A stretch of 46,093 bases of DNA from Calditrichia bacterium (GTDB lineage: Bacteria > Calditrichota > Calditrichia > RBG-13-44-9 > J075), in the NCBI GenBank assembly GCA_050633245.1, contig JBOEGD010000014.1:189860-235952 (forward strand), written 5' to 3'. Positions 226 to 42,679 of this stretch are shown piece by piece. Below the pieces are notes generated by a model. It had not been told where the DNA came from, searched no databases, and saw nothing but the letters and a program-made list of their open reading frames with translations. A program made the position numbers and the translations under genes. Positions within the stretch are counted from its first letter, which is position 1. Every line of letters begins with the position of its first letter.

Positions 226-334
226 ATCTGCCTCTTGCTATCTGACAATAGCCCAGTTATATTTTCCAACCAACAAAGTTCAAGTTTAGCAGACAGTCCC
301 AATAAGCGCATTGCGGATATTGGGACTGTTGTGC
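226..334 (+). repeat. Repeat A copy 1: sigma70-type promoter, hairpin and GTT junction (Pc/att-like module)
   Basis: TTGCTA (235-240), 17 nt, TATATT (258-263). 12-bp inverted repeat ACAGTCCCAATA..TATTGGGACTGT (293-329) running into GTTGTGC (328-334). Aligns without gaps to 3796-3870 at 53/75 identities. Confidence 0.75.
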
Positions 335-392
335 TTTATGCTAAGAAAAATGATAGCGCCAATAACAAACATTAACATAAGAGACAGAGTTT

Positions 393-1802
393 ATGCTTTT
401 TAACTCAATTGATTTTGCAATTTTCTTGCCGATAGTTTTTATACTTTATTGGTTCGCGACCAACAAAAACTTGAAGCTTCAAAACGTTCTAATCGTTGCA
501 GCAAGTTATTTATTTTACGGTTGGTGGGACTGGAGATTTTTATCGCTGATTTTATTCAGCACCATCATTGACTATACTGTCGGCCTAAAACTAAAAACAG
601 AAGAAAATCCGGGAAAAAGGAAATTTTTACTTTGGACAAGTATTTTAGTAAACCTTGGATTTTTGGGATTCTTCAAATATTACAACTTCTTCTTAGATAG
701 CTTCATAAACGCTTTTTCATTATTTGGGACTGAAATACAAGCAAACTCGCTGAACATTATTTTGCCCGTAGGAATAAGCTTTTATACTTTCCAGACATTA
801 AGCTACTCAATTGATGTTTATAAACGAAAACTTGAACCGACCAAAGATTTTATTGCCTTTGCTGCATTCGTAAGCTTTTTTCCGCAATTAGTTGCCGGCC
901 CAATTGAAAGGGCAAAAAATTTACTACCTCAGTTTTATGTGAAACGCACTTTCGCTTATAATCTCTTTTCCGGAGGAGTGAAATTAATAATTGTTGGGTT
1001 TTTCATGAAGTTAGTTGTAGCAGATAGAGCAGCTATTTACGTAGACGCTGTTTATAATAATGTCAACAATCATGCTGGCTTATCTTTTATAGCAGCAACA
1101 GTTCTTTTTGCATTTCAAATTTATGGTGATTTTGCAGGTTATTCGTTAATTGCAATTGGCACGGCACGCCTGTTCGGTTTCAAGCTGATGACAAATTTCA
1201 ACAGACCATATTTTGCAACCTCTATTGGTGATTTTTGGAAGCGCTGGCATATTTCCTTATCAACATGGTTTAGAGATTATTTGTACATTCCACTTGGCGG
1301 AAATAGAGTAGTTTATCCAAGATGGTTATTCAATATCTTTATTACTTTTCTTGTCAGTGGATTATGGCATGGTGCAAATTGGACTTTTGTTATCTGGGGT
1401 GCTTTAAACGGGTTTTATTTAATTATAGAAGCGGTATTGATTAAGAATGCTAAAAAAAATATAGTAAATGTGTTTACAACCTTCGTTTTAATATGTTTTT
1501 CATGGATTTTTTTTAGAGCAAACAATGTTAATGAAGCCTTCTATATTGTAAAAACTATTCTCACCAATCCGGGTAGACTATATATTCCCAGTGGTCCAGA
1601 TGTTGTTGTGCCAGTATATGCCGCAATCGCTATAACTCTTCTTTTTTTCACAGAGATAAAAAAGGAATACTTTAATAACGCATTTACACTTGGTGAAAAT
1701 AGATATGCCATTGTAAGGTGGGCCTTTTATAGCGGTATAATCTTTATGATTTTATACATGGGTGTATTCAATTCGAGTCAGTTTATTTATTTTCAATTCT
1801 AA
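393..1802 (+). CDS. MBOAT family O-acyltransferase (AlgI/DltB/PatA-like)
   Basis: 469 aa polytopic membrane protein with MLFNS start and LPVGISFYTFQ, FFPQLVAGPIER, NFNRPY, FWKRWHISLS and SGLWHGA (catalytic His) motifs. Confidence 0.93.
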   Translation: MLFNSIDFAIFLPIVFILYWFATNKNLKLQNVLIVAASYLFYGWWDWRFLSLILFSTIIDYTVGLKLKTEENPGKRKFLLWTSILVNLGFLGFFKYYNFFLDSFINAFSLFGTEIQANSLNIILPVGISFYTFQTLSYSIDVYKRKLEPTKDFIAFAAFVSFFPQLVAGPIERAKNLLPQFYVKRTFAYNLFSGGVKLIIVGFFMKLVVADRAAIYVDAVYNNVNNHAGLSFIAATVLFAFQIYGDFAGYSLIAIGTARLFGFKLMTNFNRPYFATSIGDFWKRWHISLSTWFRDYLYIPLGGNRVVYPRWLFNIFITFLVSGLWHGANWTFVIWGALNGFYLIIEAVLIKNAKKNIVNVFTTFVLICFSWIFFRANNVNEAFYIVKTILTNPGRLYIPSGPDVVVPVYAAIAITLLFFTEIKKEYFNNAFTLGENRYAIVRWAFYSGIIFMILYMGVFNSSQFIYFQF

Positions 1803-1806
1803 TGGT

Positions 1807-2778
1807 ATGAGATACAGTATGACAGAAAAAAGTGAATTTAAAACACTATTTATAAAGTCATTTCAATTTCTTTTAATCTTTATTCTAATTGAGTTATCCC
1901 TTGGCTTTATAGCAAAAGAAATTTTCTTTTCTCAGAAAACAGGGAAATATGCAAGACTAACGCATTCTATTAAGACAGATCGTTCTGAACTCTTGATTAT
2001 GGGAAGCTCACGTGCGAATAGGCATTATGTGCCTGATATCCTGGAAAAAGAACTAAAAATGACTTGTTATAACGCTGGCGTTCAAGGTCAATATCTTATT
2101 TTTCATACCGCCTTGCAAAAAATGATTTTAAAAAGGCATAAACCTAAACATATAATCTTAAATATTGACGAAGGTTGGTTGTATGAATCGGAAGAATCAT
2201 ACAAAAGACTTGCAGATTTACAACCATATTACTCGGATTTCGAAACGGAATTGAAACCGATACTAACATTAGATTCAAAGTTCAACACGTATAAATTATT
2301 GTTTAGTTCGTATCAAACAAACTCGACGTTAGCTCATTCGGTAAAATACTTTTTTCTACCTCAACAAGACTATAAAGGGTACAGACCTTTATTTATAAAA
2401 ATGAAAAAGCCTCTGCCTCGAAAAACAAAGCCTATTAATTCCCAAATGATAAAAGAAGACATACAAAAAATTGACACAACTTTCGTCAGGATGTTTGAAG
2501 AATTCATAAATAATGCTAAAACAAATAATGTCAATTTAATTTTTACTATATCCCCTCATCTGAAGCAAGCTAATGCCTTAAAGGTAAATAAATCATTAGA
2601 TTTGATGAAGTCTATGGCTGTAGAACAAGGGATACCTTTGATTGATTTCTCGGATGACAAAACTTTCATTGAACAATATCATTTGTTTTATGACCCTCTT
2701 CATTTAAATAATGATGGGGCAACTATATTTTCCAAATTATTAGCTGATACATTAAAAGTTAAAATTGAATTGCTTTAA
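1807..2778 (+). CDS. SGNH-like partner acyltransferase/esterase (AlgJ/DltD-like), membrane anchored
   Basis: N-terminal TM helix, MGSSR block I, YNAG and C-terminal FYDPLHLN (DxxH). Directly follows the MBOAT gene, the usual pairing. Confidence 0.8.
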   Translation: MRYSMTEKSEFKTLFIKSFQFLLIFILIELSLGFIAKEIFFSQKTGKYARLTHSIKTDRSELLIMGSSRANRHYVPDILEKELKMTCYNAGVQGQYLIFHTALQKMILKRHKPKHIILNIDEGWLYESEESYKRLADLQPYYSDFETELKPILTLDSKFNTYKLLFSSYQTNSTLAHSVKYFFLPQQDYKGYRPLFIKMKKPLPRKTKPINSQMIKEDIQKIDTTFVRMFEEFINNAKTNNVNLIFTISPHLKQANALKVNKSLDLMKSMAVEQGIPLIDFSDDKTFIEQYHLFYDPLHLNNDGATIFSKLLADTLKVKIELL

Positions 2779-3743: not shown

Positions 3744-3795
3744 CACACAAACAGCCAAGAAACTATCTGCATTTTTTGAAATGCTTTTTGCTGCT

Positions 3796-3905
3796 ATCGG
3801 CCTCTTGCTTTCCCACAACAGGCCTTTTATATTTCACTGCAAATACGGTTCAAATTTAATAAGAAGTCCCAAATGCGCAGTTGCAGTTATTAGGAAGTGT
3901 CAGGC
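3796..3905 (+). repeat. Repeat A copy 2 (degenerate hairpin)
   Basis: TTGCTT (3805-3810), 17 nt, TATATT (3828-3833). AGTCCCAA..TATTAGGA hairpin remnant, ending at GTCAGGC (3899-3905). Confidence 0.75.
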
Positions 3906-3944
3906 GCAATTACAAACAATCAACGAAAGAATATTGCCATATAT

Positions 3945-4544
3945 ATGAACCCTAAAGTTATCGCAGCAACAATAATTCGCCTTAGCAATGAAGACGAACA
4001 GCTTAGAAGCGAGCTCATAAAAACGGGTGAACTTTCCAATGGCTATAATGAAAGAATGGAGGCCTTGCATACCAGAAATGCAAAAGAACTAGACCAAATA
4101 ATTGATACCATTGGATACCCTACAATAGGCAACGTCGGCAAAGAGGCAAGCTAGGCAGCCTGGTTGATTATACAACATTCTATCAGTCAACCGGCTTTCA
4201 TGAAAAAGTGTGTGGCGCTATTAGAAGAGGCCGTGAATAATAATATGGCGAACCCAATAAATTTGGCTTATTTGGCGGATCGAATAGCGGTTTTCGAGGG
4301 AAAAGCTCAGCGTTATGGCACTCAATTCGATTGGGATAAAGATGGAGAATTGAGTCCGAACCTATATGACGACTTGAACAAAGTGAATCAGAGAAGAAAG
4401 TCTGTTGGACTGAACACACTTGAAGAGCAGATTCAACTTATAAGAGAACAAGCTAAAAGCGAGAACCAATTGCCACCGAAAGATTCTGAGCAAAGAAAAC
4501 GAGAGTACGACGCCTGGAGAAAATCAGTTGGTTGGATAAAATAA
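3945..4544 (+). pseudogene. DUF6624-like protein interrupted by an in-frame TAG at 4152-4154
   Basis: ORFs 3897-4154 and 4164-4544 share a frame. Readthrough gives ...IGYPTIGNVGKEAS*AAWLIIQHS...LAYLADRI...QRYGTQF...VNQRRKSVGL, a continuous DUF6624-type signature. Confidence 0.8.
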
Positions 4545-4684: not shown

Positions 4685-4717
4685 TTGTGGAGATCGCAAC
4701 TATCAGGGGGAAAATCC

Positions 4718-6172
4718 ATGTTCAAAAGCGTTACATATGTACTTTTCACATTATCCATTCTTTCTTGCACTGAGCCTGGCAATGTTGCTAATGACTCAGA
4801 CTACTACCGCAGCCCAGCCGATTCTGTCCACGCCGGAAATGTAGTAAGCAATATGATTCCGATGTACTCCGTTGCCGGCAAGGTTAACAGAATGACCATT
4901 CCGGAGATGATGAAGCGGGATAACATTCCGGGCTTGAGCATCGCTTTTGTAGACAGTGGAAAAATAGCATGGACAAAGCATTATGGCTATGCAAGTCTGG
5001 AGGATTCAATACCGATAAATTCGGAAACCGTATTTACCGGAGCCTCATTAAGCAAACCCATAGCAGCAATTGCCGCGCTAAGCCTGGTCGAAAAAGGTCT
5101 GCTGAATCTGGATGAAGATGTGAACCTAAAGTTGAAGGAATGGAAAGTTCCTGAGACCGAATTGACCAAGACTGAGAAGGTCACGCTGCGAAGACTGATT
5201 GGCCACAGTGCAGGAATAAAGAATGATTTATGGAGCAGTTATTTACCACATGAAGAGGTGCCGACGCTCAATCAGATGCTGGCAGGAGAAAAGCCTTCTG
5301 TAGATCCTGCAACATCGGTGATCTTTGAACCGGGAAGCAGAACGAAATACTCCAATCCCGGTTATTCCATTATTCAAAAACTGCTGATGGATGTGAGCGA
5401 CGAAGGGTTTAATCCTATTATCGACAGATTTGTTTTCGAACCCGCCGGAATGGAAAATTCCTCCTTCAATCAACCGATCCCCGATCACCTGATGAAAAGA
5501 AGAGCGGTGGGTTACAAGAAAGACCTGACGCCATACCCATATCGACTGTTTCCCTACCTGGCGGCCGGCGGCATTTGGACAACCCCTTCAGATTTAGCAA
5601 AATTTATGATCACACTACTAAATGATTATCATAATGGAACGAATACGCTTATCTCCAAAGAAATGGCTGAAACGGTATTCAGGAAAGGTATAAGACGATA
5701 TGCTTTTACCTTATGGAATTGGGGAGATGATATTGTTTTTCAACATTTCGGGAGTAATCAGGGATTCAACTGTTTTATGTATGGGTCTATCGACAAGAAT
5801 CAAGGCATTATCGTCATGACCAATAGCGATAACAGCTTTGGACTGTTCGATTATATACAGCGGGCGGTTAACAGTGAATATCAATGGGAATATGTGAAGC
5901 CGCAAATACTGGACAAAATACCTGCGAATATAAGCTGGGTGAAGCCGTTTTTAGGAGAATATAATTGGAGAGGCAACCAGACAATATTTATCAAAAAAGA
6001 CAACAATTTAGCATTGCAAATTGACGATAAGACGTATGACCTGACTCAAACCGGAGAGCGCATTTTTGTACTTGCTGAAATCCCCTTAAAAATAACCTTC
6101 CCCAAAAGTGTGGATGCTCCGATTACTATTTGGGAATCAGATGGTTACCCATATCGCACAAAAAAAGAGTAA
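4718..6172 (+). CDS. Serine hydrolase, beta-lactamase/AmpC-like fold, probable lipoprotein
   Basis: SLSK (SxxK), YSN, LIGHSAG and HFGS motifs. Lipobox ILSC. AGGGGG RBS before ATG 4718. Confidence 0.9.
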   Translation: MFKSVTYVLFTLSILSCTEPGNVANDSDYYRSPADSVHAGNVVSNMIPMYSVAGKVNRMTIPEMMKRDNIPGLSIAFVDSGKIAWTKHYGYASLEDSIPINSETVFTGASLSKPIAAIAALSLVEKGLLNLDEDVNLKLKEWKVPETELTKTEKVTLRRLIGHSAGIKNDLWSSYLPHEEVPTLNQMLAGEKPSVDPATSVIFEPGSRTKYSNPGYSIIQKLLMDVSDEGFNPIIDRFVFEPAGMENSSFNQPIPDHLMKRRAVGYKKDLTPYPYRLFPYLAAGGIWTTPSDLAKFMITLLNDYHNGTNTLISKEMAETVFRKGIRRYAFTLWNWGDDIVFQHFGSNQGFNCFMYGSIDKNQGIIVMTNSDNSFGLFDYIQRAVNSEYQWEYVKPQILDKIPANISWVKPFLGEYNWRGNQTIFIKKDNNLALQIDDKTYDLTQTGERIFVLAEIPLKITFPKSVDAPITIWESDGYPYRTKKE

Positions 6173-6255: not shown

Positions 6256-6696
6256 ATGATTAACCGATTAACGTTTTCCATTGAAATCAATGCTGACAAA
6301 AATACGATTTGGAAAGCACTCTGGGACGAAAAGTCCTATCGTGATTGGAGCGGTGTTTTCTTTGAAGGGTCCTATGCTGTCGCTGAGAATTGGGAAGAAG
6401 GTAGTATTATCCATTTTCTTGCTCCTGATCATAGTGGTATCTACAGCATGATCGAGAAACACATTCCTGATAAAACCATACAGTTTAAGCATATTGGGAA
6501 TGTAGTGGCGGGGAAAGAGCAACCGGTTGATGATGAAGCAAAAAAATGGTCTGGAGCCACAGAAATGTATTCCGTTTCCGAAGGAACAGATACGAACATA
6601 CTTACGGTTGAGATAGATGTTCTCGATGAACATGTGGAATTTATGACCAACACATTTCCCAAAGCACTGGAGAAGATAAAGAGCAACTGTGGCTAA
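6256..6696 (+). CDS. SRPBCC/AHSA1 domain protein
   Basis: 146 aa with FSIEINA..IWKALWD..YRDW, NWEEGSIIHF and a C-terminal helix FPKALEKIK. Confidence 0.85.
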   Translation: MINRLTFSIEINADKNTIWKALWDEKSYRDWSGVFFEGSYAVAENWEEGSIIHFLAPDHSGIYSMIEKHIPDKTIQFKHIGNVVAGKEQPVDDEAKKWSGATEMYSVSEGTDTNILTVEIDVLDEHVEFMTNTFPKALEKIKSNCG

Positions 6697-6742: not shown

Positions 6743-7120
6743 ATGGAATTTAGAAGCGCAAGACATACCGACAACCTTAAATCCGTAACGGACTTTTACA
6801 CCAATATTCTGGGATTAAAGGTTTTATTCTCCTTTGAAGATCACAACGACTATAGCGGCGCTTTCATCGGTAAACCAGATCATAGCTGGCATCTTGAGTT
6901 TACATCCTCCAGAACAAAGGCCGAACATACATTCGATGCCGAAGATTTGTTGGTTTTTTATCCAACCGAGAAAACTGAATACGATAAAATCATCGAAAGC
7001 ATTGAGGCGAGCGGCCTTGAAAGATTGAAGCCGAAAAATCCATTTTGGGTTGAAAATGGAGTGCTGATTCAGGACCCCGATGGATTTGGCGTTATTGTAA
7101 GCCATCTGAAGGCAAAATAG
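6743..7120 (+). CDS. VOC/glyoxalase family protein (YycE-like)
   Basis: RSARHT..FYTNILGL, WHLEFT, DLLVFY, NPFW and QDPDGF motifs. Confidence 0.88.
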   Translation: MEFRSARHTDNLKSVTDFYTNILGLKVLFSFEDHNDYSGAFIGKPDHSWHLEFTSSRTKAEHTFDAEDLLVFYPTEKTEYDKIIESIEASGLERLKPKNPFWVENGVLIQDPDGFGVIVSHLKAK

Positions 7121-7175: not shown

Positions 7176-7724
7176 ATGAAAACAATGAATAAGAAAAACA
7201 GTGTATTTATAGCGACAAGTTTAGACGGTTATATCGCGGATAAAAATGGTAGTATCGATTGGCTTCATTCCATACCAAATTCCGATCATGATGATATGGG
7301 ATATGTTGAATTCACCAAGGATATCGACGCTCTGGTTATGGGACGAACCACTTTTGAAACAGTATGCGGATTCGATGTTGATTGGCCATATGACAAACCG
7401 GTATTCGTATTGAGCAATACACTAAAAGAAATACCTGAGAGTCACAAAGGCAAAGCATTTTTAGTCAAAGGGAGACTAACAGAAGTCCTGAATCAGATTT
7501 ATGAAAAAGGCTTTCATAAACTTTACATCGATGGTGGAACAACAATACGAAATTTTCTAAAAGCTGATTTAATTGATGAAATGATAATCACGACCATTCC
7601 TATTTTATTGGGTGGTGGCTCGCCATTGTTTTCTGAACTGCCTAAGGAACTAAAGTTTGAATTGACTAAGGCTAGAACATATTTGGATCAGATTACGCAG
7701 AGTCATTACAAGCGAAGTCGATAA
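7176..7724 (+). CDS. Dihydrofolate reductase family / RibD C-terminal domain protein
   Basis: FIATSLDGYIA, VMGRTTFE, YIDGG, LIDEMII and PILLGGGSPLF motifs. Confidence 0.9.
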   Translation: MKTMNKKNSVFIATSLDGYIADKNGSIDWLHSIPNSDHDDMGYVEFTKDIDALVMGRTTFETVCGFDVDWPYDKPVFVLSNTLKEIPESHKGKAFLVKGRLTEVLNQIYEKGFHKLYIDGGTTIRNFLKADLIDEMIITTIPILLGGGSPLFSELPKELKFELTKARTYLDQITQSHYKRSR

Positions 7725-7782: not shown

Positions 7783-9255
7783 ATGAAAAGTCTCACTCTC
7801 ACACTCCTCCTCGTTCTCATCTCAAGTCTGTCTTACGGGCAAGAAAATGAAAATCATTTAAACGAATTTGACCAGAAGATCGAATCCCTCATCAAAGCAT
7901 ATACTGCCGTTGGACTATCGGTTGCCGTGGTTCAAAACAATGAAGTAATTTATTCCAAAGGTTTTGGATACAGAGATATGGAGCGCAAGCTACCGGTAGA
8001 CGACAATACCGTCTTCCATATCGCGTCGATGAGCAAAGCTTTTACCGGTACACTATTGGGAATATTGGAATCCGACGGACAGCTTTCCCTGCAGGATAAA
8101 CCTGCGCTGCACGTTCCAAATTTTCAATTCTACAATGAGAAGATGGACAATCTGATAACCATTGGAGACTTGCTAAGCCATAGAAGCGGTATCGGCACTC
8201 ATGGGTCCTCAATCGTCATGTTTCCCGAAGAAAACAAATTAAAAACGGTTCAGCGGTTGAAGTATCTAAAGCCGCAAGGGGAAATTAAGAACAGCTTCCT
8301 TTACAGCAATCTGGGATACACGCTGGCAGGTACCATTGTTGAGCAAATAACGGATAAGAGCTGGGATCAAAACCTTACAGAAATGATCTTTACACCTTTG
8401 GAGATGAACGCTTCTTACACCACCGTTGAGGAAATGGAGGGGTCGAAAAACTTTGCCAAAGGTTATGCCATGTATAAAGGTGAGGTCGTAAACGTAGCAT
8501 ATGAAAATTACTATTCGTATACGCCGGCAGGAGCGATAAAGAGTTCGGTAAAAGATTTGTCCAACTGGATGCTCACCTGGCTTAACAAGGGAATGTTTAA
8601 CGGAAAGCAGGTTATTCCTGAAAAATATGTCAGAGATGCAACCACGCTTAAAAACATGAAGGATGATCTCTACGAGAAAGAGGCATTTTTATGGGGAGAA
8701 GGATACGGCTGGCGGTTACGTGCCTGGCACGGGCATTATCGAATCCGCCATGGCGGTAATACCACCGGCTTTACTTCTCTGATGGATATGTATCCCTTTG
8801 AAGGCATCGGCGTTGTAGTCTTAACAAATCAAAAAAGCTCTCTGCTACCGTATGCTGTTTCAGACTACATATCCAGAGAACTGATGGACCTGCCCGAGTT
8901 CGATTTTCCTGTTAAGGTCGGTGATATTTATAAATCCAAAACACAAAAGTTACCGCTGAATAAAAAGAAACTGCCCGTCAATCCGCTGGAAGAATTTACA
9001 GGAAAATATTACGCAAACGGCTTTGGAGAAATTAAAGTTATTATTGAGAAAAATAAGCTACTTGCCGTATTCCCAACGTACAAATTTCAATTAGCTCATC
9101 TGAATTATAACTCCTTTTATCTGAAAGGAACAGAGGACTTCACCGGGGATTTCAATCCCGAGTTCAGGGTCGAATTCACGAATGACAGTAAAGGAAATGT
9201 TGCGATGCTAAAGTTATATTCTCAAAAAGAGCCTGTTGAGTTTATTAAAGAATAA
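7783..9255 (+). CDS. Secreted serine hydrolase (beta-lactamase fold) with a DUF3471-like C-terminus
   Basis: Signal peptide. IASMSK, LLSHRSG, YSN and HGG motifs. C-terminal FTGKYYANGFGEI. Confidence 0.9.
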   Translation: MKSLTLTLLLVLISSLSYGQENENHLNEFDQKIESLIKAYTAVGLSVAVVQNNEVIYSKGFGYRDMERKLPVDDNTVFHIASMSKAFTGTLLGILESDGQLSLQDKPALHVPNFQFYNEKMDNLITIGDLLSHRSGIGTHGSSIVMFPEENKLKTVQRLKYLKPQGEIKNSFLYSNLGYTLAGTIVEQITDKSWDQNLTEMIFTPLEMNASYTTVEEMEGSKNFAKGYAMYKGEVVNVAYENYYSYTPAGAIKSSVKDLSNWMLTWLNKGMFNGKQVIPEKYVRDATTLKNMKDDLYEKEAFLWGEGYGWRLRAWHGHYRIRHGGNTTGFTSLMDMYPFEGIGVVVLTNQKSSLLPYAVSDYISRELMDLPEFDFPVKVGDIYKSKTQKLPLNKKKLPVNPLEEFTGKYYANGFGEIKVIIEKNKLLAVFPTYKFQLAHLNYNSFYLKGTEDFTGDFNPEFRVEFTNDSKGNVAMLKLYSQKEPVEFIKE

Positions 9256-9305: not shown

Positions 9306-9872
9306 ATGAAAATTGTCGATTCAAATAGCATGTTTACGCTGATTTCTGTTGATGGAGAATCGACAAAAGATGGTGTAAAATTAAAATTGGAAGGAAACCC
9401 TCAAAAACAGTTTAAATACCAATTGCTAATTTATGGTTTAAAAAAGAAAAGCGAATTCGTCAAAGAGATAAGCGAATTCGTTGGCGCTTTCATTGATGTT
9501 GACGAACTGAAAGATAGCAAACTGGATTTTTGGAGTGACGCCTACCAGATTGGCGAATTTGAATTCGAAAGATATGAAGAGATTGTAAAGCCTTTTGAAA
9601 TGGAAGATTGGATTTCAAAATACAATTCTCTGAGTAAACACTATGCTAAATGTTCGGAGAATTATTCCACAAGGAATCTTCGGTGGAGAAAGTTTATTGA
9701 CAACCTTGAATTTTTCCTAAAAAAAGAGATTGGTAATTACGAAGCCAAAATTGAATTCTTAGCAGAAGATCAAAAGGCGACCAATTCCGCTGTAAAAGCG
9801 TTCGAATTAGCCAGGGGGATTCAGAATTTACTTGAGCAATATCGAATAGAAGAACAAAAAGACGGATTCTAG
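9306..9872 (+). CDS. Hypothetical protein
   Basis: 188-aa AT-rich ORF in the array orientation with a helical C-terminus. No motif recognised. Confidence 0.7.
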   Translation: MKIVDSNSMFTLISVDGESTKDGVKLKLEGNPQKQFKYQLLIYGLKKKSEFVKEISEFVGAFIDVDELKDSKLDFWSDAYQIGEFEFERYEEIVKPFEMEDWISKYNSLSKHYAKCSENYSTRNLRWRKFIDNLEFFLKKEIGNYEAKIEFLAEDQKATNSAVKAFELARGIQNLLEQYRIEEQKDGF

Positions 9873-10004: not shown

Positions 10005-10033
10005 TTGCGTACGCTGAACTTACGTTCCATATT
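10005..10033 (+). promoter_or_regulatory. Sigma70-type promoter of the SDR gene
   Basis: TTGCGT, 17 nt, CATATT, upstream of the AGGA RBS and ATG 10128. Confidence 0.45.
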
Positions 10034-10127
10034 AAAGTGTCTCCGGCAGCATAGAAGACGTTCATTTCCTGACAATCCAATTATTATCGCAATAGTTTCT
10101 TCACGTAAACCTATAGGATGTGCAACT

Positions 10128-29671: not shown

Positions 29672-29715
29672 CCTACAATGCAACAACTTTATTGCGCAAA
29701 GAATTTGTTTCATCT

Positions 29716-29743: not shown

Positions 29744-29778
29744 TTACAAAAATCATAAGACCAACCAGTGGTGGTATC

Positions 29779-32832: not shown

Positions 32833-32987
32833 CACCGCAAACACTATTGTTCAGTGATGCGTACCAAATCACTTTATGAAGGGCGCCTGTCAGACCATAT
32901 TGAAAAATAAGGCTTTAGAGTAGTGCGGAAGTAGAATTGAGCAAAAAGAAACTGATCGTCAGAGAAACTCAGGAGTTACGAAACATT

Positions 32988-33359
32988 ATGGTTACCACTG
33001 AACCGATTCTTGGCGTTAAAGATGTTACAAAAAGCTCAACATGGTATCAGACGCTATTCAACTGCGAAAGCGCACATGGCGGAGATAAATTTGAGATCCT
33101 AAAAAACAAGACAGGCGCGGTCATTTTGTGTCTGCACAAATGGGGAGAACACGATCATCCGACACTTCGCTCTCCAGACATCCCGACCGGCAATGGACTC
33201 ATCCTCTACTTCAGGGTTCAGGATTTAGAACAGACCTGGAACAATGCTCTTGAACTGAATGCTGAGATTGAAGCAAAACCTTCCCACAACGAGAACTCCG
33301 GGCAAAAGGAATTTGCCATAAGAGATCTTGACGGCTATTATCTGCTTATCTCGAAATAA
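32988..33359 (+). CDS. VOC/glyoxalase family protein
   Basis: PILGVKDV..SSTWY, GNGLILYFRV and EFAIRDLDGY motifs. AGGAG RBS. Confidence 0.88.
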   Translation: MVTTEPILGVKDVTKSSTWYQTLFNCESAHGGDKFEILKNKTGAVILCLHKWGEHDHPTLRSPDIPTGNGLILYFRVQDLEQTWNNALELNAEIEAKPSHNENSGQKEFAIRDLDGYYLLISK

Positions 33360-35163: not shown

Positions 35164-37515
35164 ATGAACGACAACAAAGATAAAATTGAGCTGCTGCTTG
35201 GCAAGCTTGAAACGCTTTTGCAGAAGCAGGAATCATTTGCGCAGGAAGTACAAGCATTGCGCAGTGAGATCCACAACTTAACCGGCGTTGAGCAAAAGGC
35301 AACCCCAGCACCGGAAGCTCCAACACCCCAGCCAACACAGACAGAGCAAACTGTTCAACCCACAACAGCGCCAAAGCCGCAAAGCAATCCTGTCAAGCGG
35401 CCTAAAGCACCGCGCAAGCCACTAATTCCGGAAGAACTTCAAAAAGATCTCGAAAAGTTCATTGGCGAGAACCTGATAAACAAAATCGGAATTGCTATCC
35501 TGATTCTAGGGGTTGCGATTGGTGCCAAGTATTCTATAGACAACAACCTGATTAGCCCGTTAACACGCATCATTCTCGGCTATCTGTCCGGGCTTGGTCT
35601 GCTTGGTTTCGGCATGAAATTGCGAAAGAAATACGAAAGTTATAGCGCAGTGTTGGTTAGCGGCGCGATGGCAATCTTTTACTTTCTTACCTTTGCCGCC
35701 TATAGCTTTTATGGGCTAATTCCGCAGAGTATTACCTTTGCACTCATGGTCATCTTTACGGCGTTTACGGTATTCGCTGCTCTCAGCTATAATCAACAGG
35801 CAATTGCTCATATTGGCCTGGTTGGTGCCTACGCCGTGCCGTTCCTGCTAAGCGACGGTTCGGGTAAAGTCGCTGTTTTATTCACCTATATGGCCATCAT
35901 CAATATTGGAATCTTGTTCACAGCATTTAAGCGCTACTGGAAACCCCTCTATTACGTGGCATTTGGGTTTACCTGGCTTATTTTTTTAAGCTGGTATTCC
36001 ATAGAGTATCGCCTCGAAGACCACTTTGGACTTGCACTGACATTCGCAATTATTTTCTTTGCGACGTTTTACCTCACCTTTTTAGCCTACAAGCTAATTC
36101 GCAACGAGCAATTTCAGGCAAGAGATGTTCAGCTGCTGCTTGCCAATTCTTTCACCTTTTACGGTGTTGGCTATTCAATACTAAGTTCACATGAAATCGG
36201 CATGCACCTGTTGGGTCTTTTTACGTTATTAAACGCAGTCGTGCATTTTATCGTCAGCGCAGTTTTTTATCGCCGAAAGCTGGCAGATCGGAACCTGTTT
36301 TATCTGGCATCCGGGCTGGTATTGGTATTTATTACTATCGCTATTCCGGTACAGCTGGACGGCAATTGGGTGACACTGCTATGGGTCGGTGAGGCGGCAC
36401 TGCTGTATTGGATTGGCAAGACGAAAAATATCGGGATTTATGAGAAGCTTTCTTACCCGCTGATGGCTTTGGCTTTTTTTAGCATCCTACACGACTGGTC
36501 AAATGTATATGATCGCTACGATTTTTCATCGACCGGCTTACACTTTACACCGGTTTTTAACATCCACTTTTTAAGTTCACTACTATTTATTGCGGCCTTC
36601 GCCTTTATTGTTTATTTGCAACAAAACAAAACATATCCATCAATACTTGGCAGCGGTCGATTGGCGAAGTTTGCCGCTATTGCCATTCCCGCGACTCTGT
36701 TATATGTAACATATTCAGCTTTTCACCTGGAAATTGGCAATTACTTCGAGCAGCGTCATGGATTGTCTGCGATTGCAGATGGTTCTGATTCGTATGGCGG
36801 GCAATACTACAATTATGATTTACTAAAGTTCAAAAACATTTGGCTAATAAACTACTCGCTACTCTTTCTAACAATTTTAGCGTTTTTCAATATTGAGAAG
36901 CTTCAAAATCGAATACTGGGAATCGTTAATCTTGGCTTTAGCACTTTTGCAATCGCGGCTTTTTTGCTTGGCAGTCTCTATTCGCTTGGCGAGCTACGCA
37001 GTTCTTATATAAACCAATCCATGGCAGAATATTATAACACCGGAATCTTTCACCTTGTTATTCGATATATCGCTTATGGCTTTGTCGCCCTCACTTTATT
37101 CAGCTGCTATAAGTATACGAAGCAAAAGTTTATGCAGAATGGGCAAGATCTTGTTAGACCATTTGATTTACTTCTTCACATCAGCTTGTTATGGCTAGCA
37201 AGTAGCGAACTGATTCACTGGTTAGATCTGGCCGGCGTTGCATCCGATAAGCTGGGTCTAAGTATTTTGTGGGGTGTGTATTCTCTGGCTTTAATTGCCT
37301 TTGGTATTTGGAAAGGCAGGAAACACCTACGCATCGGCGCCATTGCTCTCTTTGGAGTTACGCTCCTAAAGCTCTTTGCTTATGACATTGCTGATCTGAA
37401 CACAATTGCCAAGACAGTCGTATTTATGTCACTCGGCCTGCTGCTGCTAACTATATCATTCTTGTACAACAAATACAAACACCTGATTGTTGATGAAAAT
37501 GAAAACAAAGAATAA
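35164..37515 (+). CDS. DUF2339 family polytopic membrane protein
   Basis: N-terminal coiled coil and Pro-rich linker, LEKFIGENLINKIG, many TM helices and KLFAYDI..LLLTISFLY. Confidence 0.9.
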   Translation: MNDNKDKIELLLGKLETLLQKQESFAQEVQALRSEIHNLTGVEQKATPAPEAPTPQPTQTEQTVQPTTAPKPQSNPVKRPKAPRKPLIPEELQKDLEKFIGENLINKIGIAILILGVAIGAKYSIDNNLISPLTRIILGYLSGLGLLGFGMKLRKKYESYSAVLVSGAMAIFYFLTFAAYSFYGLIPQSITFALMVIFTAFTVFAALSYNQQAIAHIGLVGAYAVPFLLSDGSGKVAVLFTYMAIINIGILFTAFKRYWKPLYYVAFGFTWLIFLSWYSIEYRLEDHFGLALTFAIIFFATFYLTFLAYKLIRNEQFQARDVQLLLANSFTFYGVGYSILSSHEIGMHLLGLFTLLNAVVHFIVSAVFYRRKLADRNLFYLASGLVLVFITIAIPVQLDGNWVTLLWVGEAALLYWIGKTKNIGIYEKLSYPLMALAFFSILHDWSNVYDRYDFSSTGLHFTPVFNIHFLSSLLFIAAFAFIVYLQQNKTYPSILGSGRLAKFAAIAIPATLLYVTYSAFHLEIGNYFEQRHGLSAIADGSDSYGGQYYNYDLLKFKNIWLINYSLLFLTILAFFNIEKLQNRILGIVNLGFSTFAIAAFLLGSLYSLGELRSSYINQSMAEYYNTGIFHLVIRYIAYGFVALTLFSCYKYTKQKFMQNGQDLVRPFDLLLHISLLWLASSELIHWLDLAGVASDKLGLSILWGVYSLALIAFGIWKGRKHLRIGAIALFGVTLLKLFAYDIADLNTIAKTVVFMSLGLLLLTISFLYNKYKHLIVDENENKE

Positions 37516-38731
37516 TTTCTATCTACTCCTGTTACTATTCACCAGTTTTGCCTTTGGGCAAGCAGAAAACTACTCGTACTCGCGTGAAGTAAAAGGTATC
37601 GAAAACCTGTGGCATTCCATCGTGCTGCCAAATGAGGTCTTTCGGGCTATCTCGCCCAGCCTGTCTGACATCAGAATATTTGGTAAGACAGTCAAGGGAG
37701 AAATTGTTGAAGCGCCATATCTGCTGCGAGCGGCGGCAGACAAGGTGGTTAACACAGATATCAACTTTAAACAGTTAAACACCAGCTCTAATTCGAGAGG
37801 CCATTTTTTTACATTTGAAGTTCCGGAAAATACGGACATGAACCAGCTTCAACTAGAACTTGAACAGCAGAACTTCGATTGGAAGGTTGAGCTGGAAGGT
37901 AGTCAGGATCAGCGAGAATGGTTTAGCATCGTAAAAGACTATCGTATCGTTTCCATCAAGAATCAACTGACCAGTTATCGCTTCAGTACCATCTCCTTTC
38001 CCAAGGCACAGTATCGTTTTTTACGTCTGCGCATTCCAAGCAGTGAAAAGACTCTTTTGACAAGCGCAAAAATCACTCAACATCAGACAATCGCAGGCGA
38101 CTACCGCAATTATCCCATTCGCTCTATGGAACGGAGTGAGGATAAAGTTAGAAAGCAGACTATAGTTAACATCGCTTTGTCCTCACGCGTACCGGCAACC
38201 CGCTTGAAAATCGATATACAGGATGACTTCGATTATTATCGCCCGATAACAATTGAATATCTGGCTGATAGCGTTAAGACTGAGAAAGGCTGGAAGTATT
38301 CGTGGCGCAGCTTAACTTCGGGAACGCTGACATCGATTGAGCCCAACAATTTTTATTTCAATCACATTTTGTTTCGCAAGCTGCGGATCCACATTTCTAA
38401 TCAAGATAATCAGCCATTATCAATTGGCAGCGTGTCAGTAACAGGACCAGTATACGACTTGATAGTTCGCTTCACTGAATCAGCAGCCTACCACCTTACC
38501 TATGGCAATGCGAAGGCTACTCGTCCACAATATGACATCGCCCGCTTTAAAGAAAATGTTCCGCAAGACGTCAGTGAAGTAACACTTGGTGTTGAGAGAG
38601 AACTTGCAAAAGCGAGTAACCCTGAAGTAGAACCATTGTTTGGGAACCCATTGTGGCTCTGGGGCATTATGTTAGTAGTCATCGGATTACTTGGCTGGTT
38701 CTCACTTAAAATGCTTAAGAATGAGGGATAA
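37493..38731 (+). CDS. DUF3999-like secreted protein with a C-terminal anchor
   Basis: Signal peptide, LSDIRI, EAPY, YGN..ATRPQYD and a C-terminal TM. Overlaps the DUF2339 gene, its usual partner. Confidence 0.8.
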   Translation: MKMKTKNNFYLLLLLFTSFAFGQAENYSYSREVKGIENLWHSIVLPNEVFRAISPSLSDIRIFGKTVKGEIVEAPYLLRAAADKVVNTDINFKQLNTSSNSRGHFFTFEVPENTDMNQLQLELEQQNFDWKVELEGSQDQREWFSIVKDYRIVSIKNQLTSYRFSTISFPKAQYRFLRLRIPSSEKTLLTSAKITQHQTIAGDYRNYPIRSMERSEDKVRKQTIVNIALSSRVPATRLKIDIQDDFDYYRPITIEYLADSVKTEKGWKYSWRSLTSGTLTSIEPNNFYFNHILFRKLRIHISNQDNQPLSIGSVSVTGPVYDLIVRFTESAAYHLTYGNAKATRPQYDIARFKENVPQDVSEVTLGVERELAKASNPEVEPLFGNPLWLWGIMLVVIGLLGWFSLKMLKNEG

Positions 38732-38734: not shown

Positions 38735-39085
38735 ATGGATAAAGCGCTCTGGTTGGAGAAACTAAAAATATATGACGAACTAGTCGCAAAGGTTCCTGGC
38801 CTTGAACGACTTGGAAAAACCATGCCCTACACCTCGGCAAACACCTATATGTTTTCCCTTTTTAACAAAGCTGGTGAAATTGGTTTACGTTTATCGAAAG
38901 AACAGCAAAAAGAATTTATCGAGAAGTATGATTCCGGCCCATATAAGTCTTATGGAGCCACGATGAAAGATTACGTTCTGGTTCCCGAATCGATGCTTGA
39001 TGATCTGGATCTGTTGGCTACCTATCTACAGATGAGTAAAGATTTTGTCGAATCTCTGAAACCGCAGCCACGGAAAAAAAAGTGA
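38735..39085 (+). CDS. Small protein, TfoX-N/MmcQ-like
   Basis: KTMPYTSAN.YMFS, GLRL and YGATMKDYVLVP. Confidence 0.55.
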   Translation: MDKALWLEKLKIYDELVAKVPGLERLGKTMPYTSANTYMFSLFNKAGEIGLRLSKEQQKEFIEKYDSGPYKSYGATMKDYVLVPESMLDDLDLLATYLQMSKDFVESLKPQPRKKK

Positions 39086-39319: not shown

Positions 39320-40432
39320 ATGAAAACGGTATTTACTATCATCGTCGCGCTCCACGGACTTATCCATTTACTTGGCTTCGTCAAAGCTTTTAAAATTGCA
39401 GAAGTAAACGACCTGACTATACCTATTTCGAAGTCATCAGGAGTTTTACGGTTGATTGCATGTGTCCTTTTCTTAATTACAGCAATTCTTTTTGCGAGTC
39501 GTTCTGACTACTGGTGGCTGGTCGGGATTTTATCCGTCCTCTTATCTCAGACTCTTATCGTCATTTACTGGCAGGACGCTAAATATGCCACCCTTCCAAA
39601 TTTTCTTATCCTGTTGGTATGTGTCGGCGCATATGCGAATTTTCAGTTCATGAATATGGTTGAAAGCGAGGTTTTTGAGATGAATGCTGTACGCACCACC
39701 GGTCAGGAGGCAGGCACTCAACAGCCGGAGAATCTGCCTTTGCCTGTTAAAAAGTGGTTAAGCGTCAGTAATATTATGAGCCTGGGTAGAATAGAGACGG
39801 TTTATTTGGAGCAGGAAACATTTATTAAGCTGAAGCCCAACCAGAAGGATTGGTATTCGGGCACGGCAAAGCAATATTTTACAACCCAACCTCCGGCATT
39901 TATCTGGCATGTTGATTTAACCATGAATCCATTAATTCAGGTATCGGGTAGAGATAAATATGTGAACGGCAAAGGGGAAATGCTCATAAAGCTGTTTTCT
40001 CTGATCTCTGTTGCAGATGCGAAGGAGAACCATAAGGTCGATCAGGGAACGCTCCAGCGTTACCTTGCGGAAATTGCCTGGTTTCCTTCCGCTGCTCTAA
40101 ATCCGTATATCAGGTGGCAACCTATTGACAATCGGACGGCAAAGGCAACGATGTCGTACAACGGTGTGAGCGGCTCCGGCACGTTCTATTTCAGTAAAGA
40201 TGGAGACTTGCAAAAGTTTATAGCGATGCGTTATAAGGAAGTTGATGACGAATCGCAACCGATAGAATGGGTCGCTGAAGTACTGCGCACTGAGGAAAAA
40301 AACGGCGTGCGTGTACCGACAAGAATGCAGGCCACTTGGCAAATGGAAAGCGGTGCCTGGACATGGTTGAAACTAAATATAACCGATATTCGCTATAACA
40401 TAGCTAAAGAACCTATAGTACAGAGGGATTAA
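39320..40432 (+). CDS. DUF6544/DUF6920-like membrane-anchored protein
   Basis: HGLIHLLGF, LPLPVKKWL, GRDKY..GKGEM, RYLAEIAWFP and VRVP..MQATW motifs. Confidence 0.75.
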   Translation: MKTVFTIIVALHGLIHLLGFVKAFKIAEVNDLTIPISKSSGVLRLIACVLFLITAILFASRSDYWWLVGILSVLLSQTLIVIYWQDAKYATLPNFLILLVCVGAYANFQFMNMVESEVFEMNAVRTTGQEAGTQQPENLPLPVKKWLSVSNIMSLGRIETVYLEQETFIKLKPNQKDWYSGTAKQYFTTQPPAFIWHVDLTMNPLIQVSGRDKYVNGKGEMLIKLFSLISVADAKENHKVDQGTLQRYLAEIAWFPSAALNPYIRWQPIDNRTAKATMSYNGVSGSGTFYFSKDGDLQKFIAMRYKEVDDESQPIEWVAEVLRTEEKNGVRVPTRMQATWQMESGAWTWLKLNITDIRYNIAKEPIVQRD

Positions 40433-40442
40433 AACAGAGCCA

Positions 40443-40964
40443 ATGCATAATATGATTCTCCAACCAACACTCAAGGGCAAACTTGTCCTGCTTCGCCCAC
40501 TTAAAGAGAGTGACCTTGAGCCTCTTTACGAAGTTGCCAAAGATCCGCTAATCTGGGAACAACACCCATGTCCCACCCGCTATCAGCGTGCAGAGTACGA
40601 GGCATTTTTCAAAGACTCGCTGGATTCGCAGGGAGCGTTAATCGTTATAGACGCCGCAAGCGATCAGGTAATCGGCAGCTCACGCTTCAACCCCATAGAG
40701 AGACATTCCAATGCCGTTGAAATTGGCTGGTCATTTCTCGCAAGAAAATACTGGGGTGGAAAATATAATCGCGCGGTAAAAAAGTTGATGATAAGTCACG
40801 CACTAGAGACTCTTGACTGCGTCATTTTTTATATCGGAAGGGATAATGTTCGTTCGCAAAAGGCTGTAGAAAAGTTGGGAGCAATAAAAATAATCGATTC
40901 CTTAAATCCACTTATGAAAATTAGCGATATTGATATTACATATAAAATCTCAAGCCAAATCTAA
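40443..40964 (+). CDS. GNAT family N-acetyltransferase (RimJ/RimL-like)
   Basis: LLRPL, IGSSRF, EIGWSFL..YWGG and NVRSQKAVEKLGA motifs. Confidence 0.9.
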   Translation: MHNMILQPTLKGKLVLLRPLKESDLEPLYEVAKDPLIWEQHPCPTRYQRAEYEAFFKDSLDSQGALIVIDAASDQVIGSSRFNPIERHSNAVEIGWSFLARKYWGGKYNRAVKKLMISHALETLDCVIFYIGRDNVRSQKAVEKLGAIKIIDSLNPLMKISDIDITYKISSQI

Positions 40965-41002
40965 TAATGCCTACCAAGCGCCTTGGCATAAAAAGGTTAT
41001 AC

Positions 41003-42679
41003 ATGAAATTACTCATACTCACAATATTAATTAGTGCTTTTGCATGCAAAAGTGACGATAGCGGAACAGATCCGATGCAAAATAAGGAACAGGTTTATAT
41101 TAATGGGAAGATTTACACAGTAAGTAACGATCTTCTATGGGCAGAGGCAATGCTAATCAGGGATGGTAAAATCATCGCTATTGGTACAAATCAAAGCGTG
41201 CAAAGTCAGTCTGCTGCGGGCGCAACACTTGTAGATTTGCAAAACAAGATGGTCATGCCGGGCATTCACGATGTGCACCTGCATCCGCTGGAAGCAGCTT
41301 CGAATAATTTTCTATTTATTTTGGACGAAACAGAGTCGGATCCGGAAAATTATGCTACAGATATCCAGCAGGCGATTCAGGACAACCCCGGTTCCGAGTG
41401 GATTTTAGGCTGGGGATTTGATATTTATACTGCGCTCGATGCCACGCGCGAACCAATAGACATTTTGGACGACATTTCTCTGACAAAACCGATTGCGGTC
41501 ATGGAGCAAACCTCGCACTCAATGTGGGTCAATTCAAAAGCCCTGGAAATCGCCGGGATTACTGCTTCGACGGCAAATCCCGCGGGCGGAGTAATTATGA
41601 AAGATGAGACTGGACAGCCAAACGGTTTGCTCATCGATAATGCCGGAAATCTCATTGTCGATTTGGCAATTGCCTCCATTCCCAATAGTGCACAAAATGA
41701 CTATGATGGTTTGGTAAATACCGCTCTGCCAGAATTGGCTAAAAATGGAATCACCTCAGTATGCGACGCGCGAACCTACTGGAAAAGAGACCATCATTTA
41801 ACCTGGCAACAGGTTGAAGACAATGGAGAACTAACCGTTCGCGCGAATCTTGGACTTTGGTTATATCCTACCGAAGATGACGCTTCGCAAATTGCCACTC
41901 TAAAGTCGCTTTATTCAAACGAACCAGGGAGTTTTTTAAAGGTCAATCAAATAAAGCTATATGCGGATGGCATTGTTATTAATACCACATCGGCAATGCA
42001 GCAAGACTATTTAATTGATCTTTTCGAATTGTCGACCAATAATGGTCTTAACTACGTATCAGAAAATCGCATTGCCCAATACATTGCTGTTCTGGAGCCA
42101 ACCGGATTTGACTTTCATATCCATACTATCGGAAACCGCGGTGTTCATGAAGCGCTTAATGCCATCGAGCAAAGCGGAACGTCGACGGGCAGACATCGAT
42201 TAACGCATGTCGAGTATGTCGATGCTGTTGATTACCCACGTTTTGCTCAACTCAATGTAACGGCCGATGCACAGGTTGCCGGAGACTTTACCAAACCAGA
42301 GAATTGGCATGAAAATGATGAATTAGTCGATCCGGTATTGAATGACAACATTATTCCAATAAAAAGCCTGCTCCAGGCAAATGCCCGAATTACCCTTAGC
42401 AGCGATTGGGATGTGAGTTCATTAAACCCGTTTGTCGGCCTACAGAACGCCGTTACACGCGTTCCGCAGGAAATTAGCTTGTCAGAGGCCATTAAAGCGT
42501 ACACCTTAAATGCGGCATATGTAATGAGGCAAGAAGATATTGTTGGTAGCCTGGAGGTTGGCAAAGAGGCCGATTTTATTGTGCTTAGCCAAAACATCTT
42601 CGAAGTGACACCGAATCAGATTGCTCAAATATCGGTTTTGGCGACTTATTTGAAAGGTGAGTTGATTTACGAGAAGTAA
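41003..42679 (+). CDS. Amidohydrolase_3 (YtcJ-like), probable lipoprotein
   Basis: MPGIHDVHLH, HSMWVNS, KLYADG, HIHTIG, HRLTHVE, SSDW and GSLEVGKEADF motifs. FAC lipobox. Confidence 0.92.
   Translation: MKLLILTILISAFACKSDDSGTDPMQNKEQVYINGKIYTVSNDLLWAEAMLIRDGKIIAIGTNQSVQSQSAAGATLVDLQNKMVMPGIHDVHLHPLEAASNNFLFILDETESDPENYATDIQQAIQDNPGSEWILGWGFDIYTALDATREPIDILDDISLTKPIAVMEQTSHSMWVNSKALEIAGITASTANPAGGVIMKDETGQPNGLLIDNAGNLIVDLAIASIPNSAQNDYDGLVNTALPELAKNGITSVCDARTYWKRDHHLTWQQVEDNGELTVRANLGLWLYPTEDDASQIATLKSLYSNEPGSFLKVNQIKLYADGIVINTTSAMQQDYLIDLFELSTNNGLNYVSENRIAQYIAVLEPTGFDFHIHTIGNRGVHEALNAIEQSGTSTGRHRLTHVEYVDAVDYPRFAQLNVTADAQVAGDFTKPENWHENDELVDPVLNDNIIPIKSLLQANARITLSSDWDVSSLNPFVGLQNAVTRVPQEISLSEAIKAYTLNAAYVMRQEDIVGSLEVGKEADFIVLSQNIFEVTPNQIAQISVLATYLKGELIYEK

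Follow-up and report, generated by a model that had tools for sequence, protein, structure and literature searches.

The window analyzed here is a 46,093-nucleotide (nt) stretch of the draft genome of a Calditrichia bacterium (C14:189860-235952 of assembly G000; its right edge is the end of the contig), and it holds the larger part of an array of 52 open reading frames (ORFs) that are all located on the plus strand. Our favored, although tentative, interpretation is that this array is a fixed, no longer mobile store of accessory genes, most likely a decayed sedentary chromosomal integron. The array itself contains no integron relic; from its context, we infer that its genes arrived as cassettes.

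A single-strand array of 52 genes between mutL and addB

The host assembly is a 6.35-Mb draft of 59 contigs that is 97% complete, and ORFs were called throughout the genome by a crude procedure that takes the longest ORF first, with a minimum of 90 amino acids (aa). The full array spans 49.7 kb (C14:182982-232538), and 52 of its 52 ORFs are on the plus strand, which is the layout of integron cassette arrays. A greedy ORF call on the array with a limit of at least 70 aa yielded 53 ORFs on the plus strand and none on the minus strand, and in the program-made ORF list of the window all long ORFs between 393 and 42679 are on the plus strand, too. The first-pass annotation of the window had described a co-oriented array of about 45 genes and 42 kb at this place; this was correct, and the array turned out to be even larger. 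Its left end is located 6.9 kb outside the window, directly after the divergent mutL gene (minus strand), from which the head of the array is separated by repeat-rich DNA. The call of a 92-aa ORF at the left end of the array is doubtful because this ORF overlaps the repeat-rich DNA. The right end is formed by the convergent addB gene (minus strand), which is not followed by addA; the contig stops 57 nt past the addB start.

Genome-wide, the 4862 crude ORFs form 1234 same-strand runs, with a median size of 2 and a 99th percentile of 25.7 ORFs. The array is the longest of all runs, the runners-up comprising 50 and 44 ORFs. Under a neighbor-switch model with the switch probability of the genome (0.246), 0.0007 runs of at least 52 ORFs are expected. 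A cause is required for so strict a co-orientation of 52 unrelated genes. The genes of the 50-ORF run, which is located on C18, are closely spaced, and on this criterion alone the run looks like ordinary operons. The 44-ORF run (C24:187261-224031) is cassette-like, has a median ORF size of 140 aa and carries two HigB toxins with helix-turn-helix partners, in addition to HTH_3, SnoaL, and AlkZ-like proteins; 50 Pfam families were found in the 43 of its 44 ORFs that were scanned, and neither a repeated site within this run nor an integrase beside it was detected.

Content, composition, and distribution of the array genes

Domains were assigned by Pfam scans of the 46 ORFs of the window and of the left extension. 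The window encodes four PF00144 serine hydrolases, four glyoxalase/VOC proteins, two Asp/Glu racemases, and two amidohydrolases, as well as single representatives of GNAT, TIR, DinB_2, GyrI-like, RibD_C, short-chain dehydrogenase (SDR), aldo/keto reductase, arginase, and NhaC; MBOAT, LytTR, Kelch, and DUF2339 with DUF3999 are among the others, and 10 of the 46 ORFs had no Pfam match. Further genes in the left extension encode TIR-TPR, esterase-TPR, and DUF1963 proteins, together with a fifth PF00144 protein and a second GNAT. With this diversity of families, neighboring genes are indeed functionally unrelated, as had been noted in the first-pass annotation. Of the families that it had listed as typical of integron cassettes, GNAT, VOC, DinB, TIR, and the dihydrofolate-reductase-like RibD_C are present, whereas no SRPBCC family was found among the Pfam matches of the array. 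PADLOC recognized nothing but TIR domains in the array, and neither Rfam families nor tRNAs were detected in the window. For most array proteins, paralogues in the genome are absent or distant, and tandem duplication was therefore rejected as the origin of the array.

The GC content of the array genes ranges from 0.30 to 0.51. Their mean is 0.412, compared to 0.454 for the genome. Among 3082 windows of 52 genes, 0.03% have a mean as low as this and no more than 4% have a standard deviation of gene GC as large, so that the base composition does jump between genes, as originally claimed, and 16 of the 52 genes are below the 5th GC percentile of the genome.

The presence of array genes was surveyed in 30 genomes related at the family and order level. 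For the genes tested, orthologue-level matches were missing in most relatives: the GyrI-like protein had a match in 3 of the 30 (35-38% identity), DUF6920 in 7 (24-31%), and DUF2911 in 19 (28-49%), compared with full-length matches of the core protein MutL in all 30 (54-62%). Homologues of the SDR with 51-75% identity were found at 70 loci, covering at least six phyla and including Bacteroidota, Balneolaceae, Myxococcota, Gammaproteobacteria, Chloroflexota, and one archaeal metagenome-assembled genome, with no conserved neighbors around them. Because the best matches were in Bacteroidota, and none of the best in Calditrichia, the SDR gene appears, on sequence grounds, to move between phyla.

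A related array with a partly different gene content

The closest relative found, L127, is a 21-kb metagenome locus from a contig of ~1 Mb. It shares ten array genes (SDR, DinB, VOC, PF00144, a 334-aa unknown, NhaC, arginase, the two racemases, and GGACT) with 65-93% aa identity, on the same strand and, except for the 334-aa unknown, in the same order. Inside the shared segment, seven ORFs were found only in L127, including a c-type cytochrome, a 1051-aa BNR/sortilin protein, SUKH, and an aldo/keto reductase, and five only in the host (GyrI-like, leucine-rich repeat (LRR), YcxB, a 204-aa unknown, and VOC); two of the additional genes of L127 lie between the Asp/Glu racemase paralogues. All 12 lineage-specific genes are on the plus strand, for which the chance is 2^-12. 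Thus, gene order, the conservation of which had been named as an argument against a capture locus, is partly conserved, but 12 genes differ. This pattern fits differing losses from a larger same-strand ancestor and, equally, gains in one orientation. No attC site was found in L127, and its spacers have diverged from those of the host beyond recognition, with the exception of a promoter-like element before NhaC. At this degree of divergence, a functionless recombination site would not be expected to survive.

A comparison of the addB locus across relatives, which the first-pass annotation had recommended, revealed no array genes beside addB or mutL in five family-level relatives. In these genomes, mutL and addB are not adjacent and their neighborhoods are of mixed orientation; overall, synteny at the family distance is too weak to indicate the ancestral state.

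Integrons of relatives and an attC-free tail

Integrases at or above the curated cut-off of the IntI model (TIGR02249, 265 bits) were found in 15 of the 30 relatives, including 8 of the 15 relatives of the same family. Large classical integrons thus seem to be common in Calditrichia. In G008, a family-level relative assembled as one contig, an intact intI gene (2798187-2799122, minus strand) is followed by plus-strand ORFs up to ~2.95 Mb. The array of this integron is ~137 kb long, has a GC content of 0.347, and contains at least 215 repeat islands (2,800,095-2,936,969) with an attC-like TCTAAC...GTTAGA site of ~130 nt. In general, attC sites are imperfect palindromes with RYYYAAC ... GTTRRRY ends.

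A second relative, G007, has retained a C-terminal stump of IntI (a 62-aa frame, C64:77284-77436, minus strand) that matches the last 51 model positions with 89 bits. It is followed by GCTAAC...GTTAGC sites of ~130 nt, the outer stems of which contain unpaired bases as in attC. A covariance model built from 25 of these sites (R1) yielded 46 matches in G007, all on the plus strand. The 29 proximal sites, at 78.1-99.5 kb, each scored at least 59.8 bits, whereas 5 of the 17 distal sites, at 100-125.3 kb, scored under 40 bits or were truncated. The probability that five low scores would all fall among the distal 17 is p = 0.0045 (hypergeometric calculation by hand), a value to be read with the training bias of R1, since 17 of the 25 model sites are proximal. 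Half-sites were also observed in the distal part of the attC zone. Beyond 125,318, no attC was found even with filters off, and the plus-strand genes run on to ~212.5 kb, which results in an 87-kb attC-free same-strand tail beyond the last attC (C64:125.4-212.6 kb). The upstream flank of the G007 integron is syntenic with host contig C4, where the host has ordinary genes. For the integron of a further relative, G023, repeated sites were not found.

In ORF size and coding density, the array resembles this tail and not true cassettes. The median ORF size is 163 aa in the G008 cassette array, 177 aa in the G007 attC zone, 212 aa in the attC-free tail, 237 aa in the array, and 315 aa in the whole host genome; ORFs of at least 300 aa account for 5, 6, 31, 38, and 53%, respectively, and the coding fractions of the first four are 0.51, 0.72, 0.88, and 0.88. 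If the array is a fossil integron, small cassettes must have been lost preferentially. At thresholds of at least 40% identity and at least 70% coverage, none of the 67 ORFs of the G007 attC zone but 16 of the 103 tail ORFs had homologues in the host, and for 3 of these 16 the best match is in the array (SDR, 70%; DinB, 51%; GNAT, 50%). The content of the tail is also diverse, with 122 Pfam families in 132 plus-strand ORFs of C64:100-220 kb, a segment that starts 25 kb before the end of the attC zone and extends 7 kb past the tail. In contrast to the array, which is bounded by mutL and addB, the tail is physically linked to attC sites and an IntI stump; the tail itself is no described class.

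In nine small contigs of relatives, attC-like stems were sought near distant homologues of array genes. Candidates were found in G017 and, after an SDR homologue without repeats around it, in L060; both were at chance level, with homologues too distant, and were dismissed. The G017 candidate (L214 6560-6680, contig G017:C151) is an imperfect palindrome of ~100 nt with the ends TTAACCTG ... CAGGTTAT that follows a 30%-identical DUF6920 homologue, and it may be an attC site. G017 carries a broken IntI gene.

Promoter-like elements and repeats

Two kinds of promoter-like elements precede units of the array (Table 1). The P-element, ~130 nt long, contains TTGC(T/A)T-17-TATATT followed by a short, conserved palindrome. 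At the head of the array, it is present in five copies, each before one of five successive, unrelated units: the TIR-TPR gene, PF00144, DUF1963, the MBOAT operon, and an 85-aa ORF, and two of these five units encode TIR proteins. A single further copy in the genome precedes one gene (C7:165170-165297), and none was found in the examined loci of relatives. The copies are ~60-75% alike (aligned by eye), and their hairpins show no compensatory changes. These features point to a small regulon or to the duplication of a promoter module. The second element, a promoter/leader with the strict motif TTG[CT]CTCTT...TATA[CT]T, was found at only two places in the genome, upstream of YcxB and upstream of NhaC. 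Its copies are ~70% alike (by eye) and flank the YcxB gene, which is missing from L127; this gene may have been inserted along with a duplication of the leader.

REP-like inverted repeats were observed in three longer spacers (18072-18103, 18219-18244, and 23859-23890), with copies on many contigs. The 341-nt spacer before the DUF2339 gene contains GGGTTCT/GAGTTCT heptamers in short tandem (35013-35068).

Table 1. Annotated features of the window and further copies of the P-element (coordinates refer to the window unless a locus is named).
Feature	Coordinates	Strand	Remarks
P-element copy 4	205..345	+	TTGCTA-17 nt-TATATT at 235-263; upstream of MBOAT unit
P-element copy 5	3775..3896	+	upstream of 85-aa ORF
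Other P-element copies	L009 13320-13483, 15160-15312, 16420-16565		
MBOAT O-acyltransferase, 469 aa	393..1802	+	PF03062, 96 bits; GC 0.34
338-aa ORF	1762..2778	+	no Pfam; 41-nt overlap with MBOAT gene, likely one operon; GC 0.30
TIR-domain protein, 254 aa	2797..3561	+	PF13676; PADLOC TIR models; GC 0.30
85-aa ORF, then DUF6624 protein (4164-4544)	3897..4544	+	85-aa ORF: no Pfam
Beta-lactamase-family serine hydrolase	4685..6172	+	PF00144
146-aa ORF	6256..6696	+	no Pfam
YycE-like VOC/glyoxalase-fold protein	6743..7120	+	Pfam
RibD_C (dihydrofolate-reductase-like) protein	7176..7724	+	Pfam
Beta-lactamase-family hydrolase with DUF3471	7783..9255	+	Pfam
188-aa ORF	9306..9872	+	no Pfam
Short-chain dehydrogenase (SDR)	10005..11105	+	GC 0.51; common to L127 (93%) and G007 (70%)
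334-aa ORF	11180..12184	+	no Pfam; L127 homologue 65%, at another place in the array
DinB_2 protein	12254..12778	+	common to L127 (73%)
GyrI-like (12859-13491) and weak-LRR protein (13529-14080)	12859..14080	+	both absent in L127 between DinB and VOC
Glyoxalase/VOC protein	14171..14632	+	common to L127 (79%)
Beta-lactamase-family hydrolase	14701..15795	+	common to L127 (69%)
Promoter/leader copy 1	15840..15933	+	TTGCCT-17-TATACT; upstream of YcxB gene
YcxB-like protein	15934..16431	+	absent in L127
Promoter/leader copy 2	16476..16567	+	TTGTCT-17-TATACT; upstream of NhaC; kept upstream of NhaC in L127
NhaC-type Na+/H+ antiporter	16568..18064	+	common to L127 (93%)
REP-like GC-rich inverted repeats in spacer	18065..18256		dispersed genome-wide
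Arginase-family enzyme (18257-19036), overlapping 204-aa ORF (19033-19647)	18257..19647	+	arginase 86% to L127; 204-aa ORF: no Pfam, absent in L127
Glyoxalase/VOC protein	19688..20194	+	absent in L127
Asp/Glu racemase paralogues (20312-21025, 21129-21809); GGACT protein (21847-22182)	20312..22182	+	all in L127 (66-79%)
Amidohydrolase	22317..23696	+	Pfam
DUF2911-TPR protein	23996..24859	+	
Two small overlapping ORFs, 96 and 116 aa	25037..25662	+	no Pfam
Esterase-TPR protein	25743..26942	+	Pfam
LytTR-domain protein (26963-27814) and DUF2306 membrane protein (27901-28509)	26963..28509	+	
Kelch-repeat protein	28610..29671	+	Pfam
Beta-lactamase-family hydrolase	29692..31308	+	Pfam
Aldo/keto reductase	31429..32379	+	Pfam
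DUF2721-like (32440-32832) and glyoxalase/VOC protein (32937-33359)	32440..33359	+	DUF2721-like just under Pfam cut-off
Two ORFs, 275 and 175 aa	33403..34822	+	no Pfam
DUF2339 membrane protein (783 aa) overlapping DUF3999 protein (414 aa)	35164..38731	+	operon-like pair
116-aa ORF	38735..39085	+	weak TfoX_N match, under cut-off
DUF6920 (39320-40432), GNAT (40443-40964), Amidohydro_3 (40967-42679)	39320..42679	+	gaps 10 and 2 nt
AddB-type helicase-nuclease subunit	42713..46036	-	right boundary of array, which converges on its 3' end

Evidence against a cassette origin

Several results weigh against the derivation of the array from an integron. The highest score with the IntI model in the host genome is 83 bits, for Xer-like genes on other contigs, and none of the six PF00589 genes of the genome is on C14 (this recombinase family being the one searched). 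No relic of IntI was found either, on C14 or elsewhere in the genome, and a stump like that of G007 should have been seen, because the latter scored 89 bits with 62 aa. The search for an IntI-like tyrosine recombinase that the first-pass annotation had proposed, including the DNA left of the window, thus remained without a hit, and there is no IntI beside the array as there would be in a complete integron or an In0 element. The R1 model returned nothing under E = 0.5 for the window and its left flank with filters off, and no match in the whole host genome. A generic scan for stems (AAC and GTT separated by 45-150 nt, with arms that pair, at or below -22 kcal/mol) revealed one stem on the plus strand and three on the minus strand of the array, compared to 2-8 in four control regions of the host, 23-28 in the G007 attC zone, and 82-89 in 50 kb of the G008 array.

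The spacers also lack traces of recombination sites. In 39 array spacers, AAC occurred 123 times (115.4 +/- 9.4 in shuffled spacers), GTT 58 times (61.8 +/- 6.6), GTTRRRY twice (3.6), and RYYYAAC five times (6.7), so that both the core motifs and the R'/R'' motifs are at the shuffle level. The earlier claim that many spacers keep AAC/GTT cores is therefore not confirmed, and this outcome is one that its author had listed as adverse. Furthermore, the 39 spacers are less structured (mean folding z -0.54) than 120 sampled from the 1995 other same-strand spacers (-1.35), z values below -2 being found for 13 and 33%, respectively. No k-mer is enriched in the array spacers, and a search for repeat families across all host spacers revealed no array-specific site, only the dispersed REP-like elements. 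CALINs are defined as clusters of attC sites without an integrase, with a clustering threshold of 4 kb (Cury et al., 2016; PMC4889954, available text). Neither R1 nor the stem scan nor the motif counts detected two or more nearby attC sites in the array. As the defining parts were looked for and not found, the array cannot be classed as an integron or a CALIN.

The genes themselves also differ from cassettes. The share of ORFs of at least 300 aa is 38%, compared with 5-6% in the cassette arrays of relatives, and some pairs are operon-like, their genes overlapping or lying 2-10 nt apart, a departure from the predominantly small and single, promoter-less units of cassette arrays. According to the available text of an article, cassettes typically have no promoter (PMC13108822). 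In the array, at least seven units are preceded by promoter-like elements and therefore, as predicted from sequence, would be transcribed singly or as a regulon, unlike typical cassettes. No close homologue of an array protein was found among the examined G008 or G007 cassettes, only two weak SDR matches in G008, and the remaining tail ORFs of G007 with homologues in the host match genes scattered over other contigs, some of them core-like and 67-75% identical. The decrease of attC density and score away from the integrase end was seen in one relative only. Finally, it had been suggested to inspect whether homologues sit beside attC-like hairpins; for the SDR, the sole gene tested widely, strong AAC...GTT stems were present 3' of 10 of 59 homologues, versus 11 of 59 control positions.

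Three further observations of the first-pass annotation concerned signals in the spacers. Clear intrinsic terminators are indeed scarce: no terminator-like site on the plus strand was found in the spacers of positions 1-40000 of the window. Strong Shine-Dalgarno sites had been taken as a hint at mixed donors, but such motifs precede 19% of the array ORFs compared to 38% genome-wide, and because they are rarer in the array they are no sign of foreign donors. The proposed resemblance of spacer ends to cassette boundaries of Bacteroidota could not be upheld, the host probably belonging to Calditrichia. The HARP-domain family PF07443 had no match in the host genome, and control genomes were equally silent.

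Origin of the array

In the scenario that we favor, an IntI integrase would have inserted the cassettes in a single orientation, and the integrase gene would then have been lost, which is plausible because IntI is present in 15 of the 30 relatives and absent from the host. The unused attC sites would have decayed or been deleted, small useless cassettes would have dropped out, and the surviving genes would have gained or kept their own promoters. The region would now be ordinary chromosome that changes mainly by the loss of single genes, lineage by lineage, so that the remaining genes would stay on the same strand. A fossil integron would supply a cause for the single orientation that is demonstrably present in the lineage, and would explain the differences from L127 by losses alone. 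The earlier proposal of a gene-capture locus with sites deleted after capture thus agrees with the changing same-strand store, the integron-rich lineage, and the decay in G007, but not with the lack of IntI, of attC relics, and of motifs. It is conceivable, and we put it forward with caution, that the giant integrons of Calditrichia act as conveyor belts, with entry at the integrase end, loss of attC at the distal end, and fixed same-strand arrays of 50-100 kb, free of attC, that would persist after the integron is gone.

Nearly as likely as a fossil integron is a plasticity zone unrelated to integrons, that is, an old hotspot of ordinary recombination in which orientation has been kept by selection under read-through transcription from few promoters; genes inserted the other way round would be shut down by antisense transcription and then lost. 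This possibility fits every direct test of the array, including the absence of integron parts, the weakly structured spacers devoid of plus-strand terminators, the promoter-like elements, of which the one before NhaC has been kept in L127, the many large ORFs and operon-like pairs, and the presence of SDR homologues in many phyla with neither conserved neighbors nor attC-like hairpins. The atypical composition and the variable content around a kept backbone, with ten genes shared with L127 and 12 differing, are also characteristic of such zones. Their other hallmark, a mobility gene or tRNA at the border, is missing from the hotspot (the window contains no tRNA, and C14 lacks tyrosine recombinases). 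Moreover, a single strand for 52 genes and for all 12 lineage-specific ones demands strong selection, which is itself presumed, as is the read-through transcription, and the direct transition of the integron of a relative into the same kind of tail would be left without an explanation. In flexible islands, genes usually lie in both orientations, and integrases, tRNA targets, or insertion sequences are often present. The array shares with such islands the variable accessory content between relatives, the atypical composition, and the conserved flanking genes, but differs in being all on one strand and in lacking the mobility genes (tyrosine recombinases) and tRNAs that were checked.

An undescribed orientation-specific capture that works without IntI and attC, perhaps tied to the P-element in such a way that a unit arrives with a copy or lands behind one, is unlikely. 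The five copies before five consecutive unrelated units, with one more in the genome and none in the loci of relatives, would agree with it, as would the promoter/leader pair around the YcxB gene that is absent in L127. However, the P-element is confined to the first 11 kb, the other ~40 spacers share no motif, the copies are just ~60-75% alike, their hairpins lack compensatory changes, no recombinase is nearby (tyrosine recombinases on C14), and the binding site of a common regulator is the simpler explanation. Still less probable is selection for genes co-directional with replication. Gene orientation follows replication in many bacteria, and 61% of the host genes are on the locally G-rich strand, but this bias is weak, as is evident from the switch probability and the median run of 2. 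In addition, the rest of C14 has a negative GC skew on the plus strand and mixed orientation, which hints that the array is head-on, and the G008 integron is located left of dnaA and points towards it; GC skew in the examined G008 pieces is noisy and does not settle the direction. Very little speaks for chance or an artifact of assembly or ORF calling, which we regard as highly improbable: the draft has 59 contigs, the ORF caller is crude, and the window touches a contig end, but runs of this length are not expected by chance (0.0007), the program-made ORF list gives the same layout, and L127, an independent record, has the same backbone on one strand.

Relation to known systems and implications

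Like sedentary integrons and CALINs, the array is long, is restricted to one strand, consists of unrelated accessory genes typical of cassettes, and occurs in an integron-rich lineage. Unlike these, it has neither IntI nor an IntI pseudogene nor even degenerate attC sites, its genes are larger, and several units have promoter-like elements of their own. Cury et al. (2016) suggested, in the available text, that a CALIN whose attC sites are very degenerate represents a stage on the way to the stabilization of captured genes (PMC4889954), so that fossilization is already in print as a hypothesis. The 14 phyla with integrons given in the available text of a 2021 review do not include Calditrichota (PMC8618304). 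Titles and abstracts of the literature revealed no apparent report on integrons in Calditrichia, although supplementary tables may list some, and nothing relevant was found on co-oriented arrays that have lost attC. A study of Xanthomonas described repeated inactivation of integrons, without a report of attC-free arrays in its available text (PMC12444791).

These results touch on the long-run fate of cassettes and on the share of accessory gene content that stems from integrons, because current tools count attC-bearing DNA alone. If the array is not derived from an integron, the same-strand order of 52 unrelated genes still demands a cause. If the conveyor-belt scenario is correct, the window represents the end state, an integron that has turned into ordinary chromosome and is not seen by integron finders. 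The lineage would then exhibit all stages, from an active array of 137 kb via a decaying array with an attC-free tail to an array without integron parts. If arrays of this kind are fossil integrons, integrons would have shaped far more of the chromosome than surveys show.

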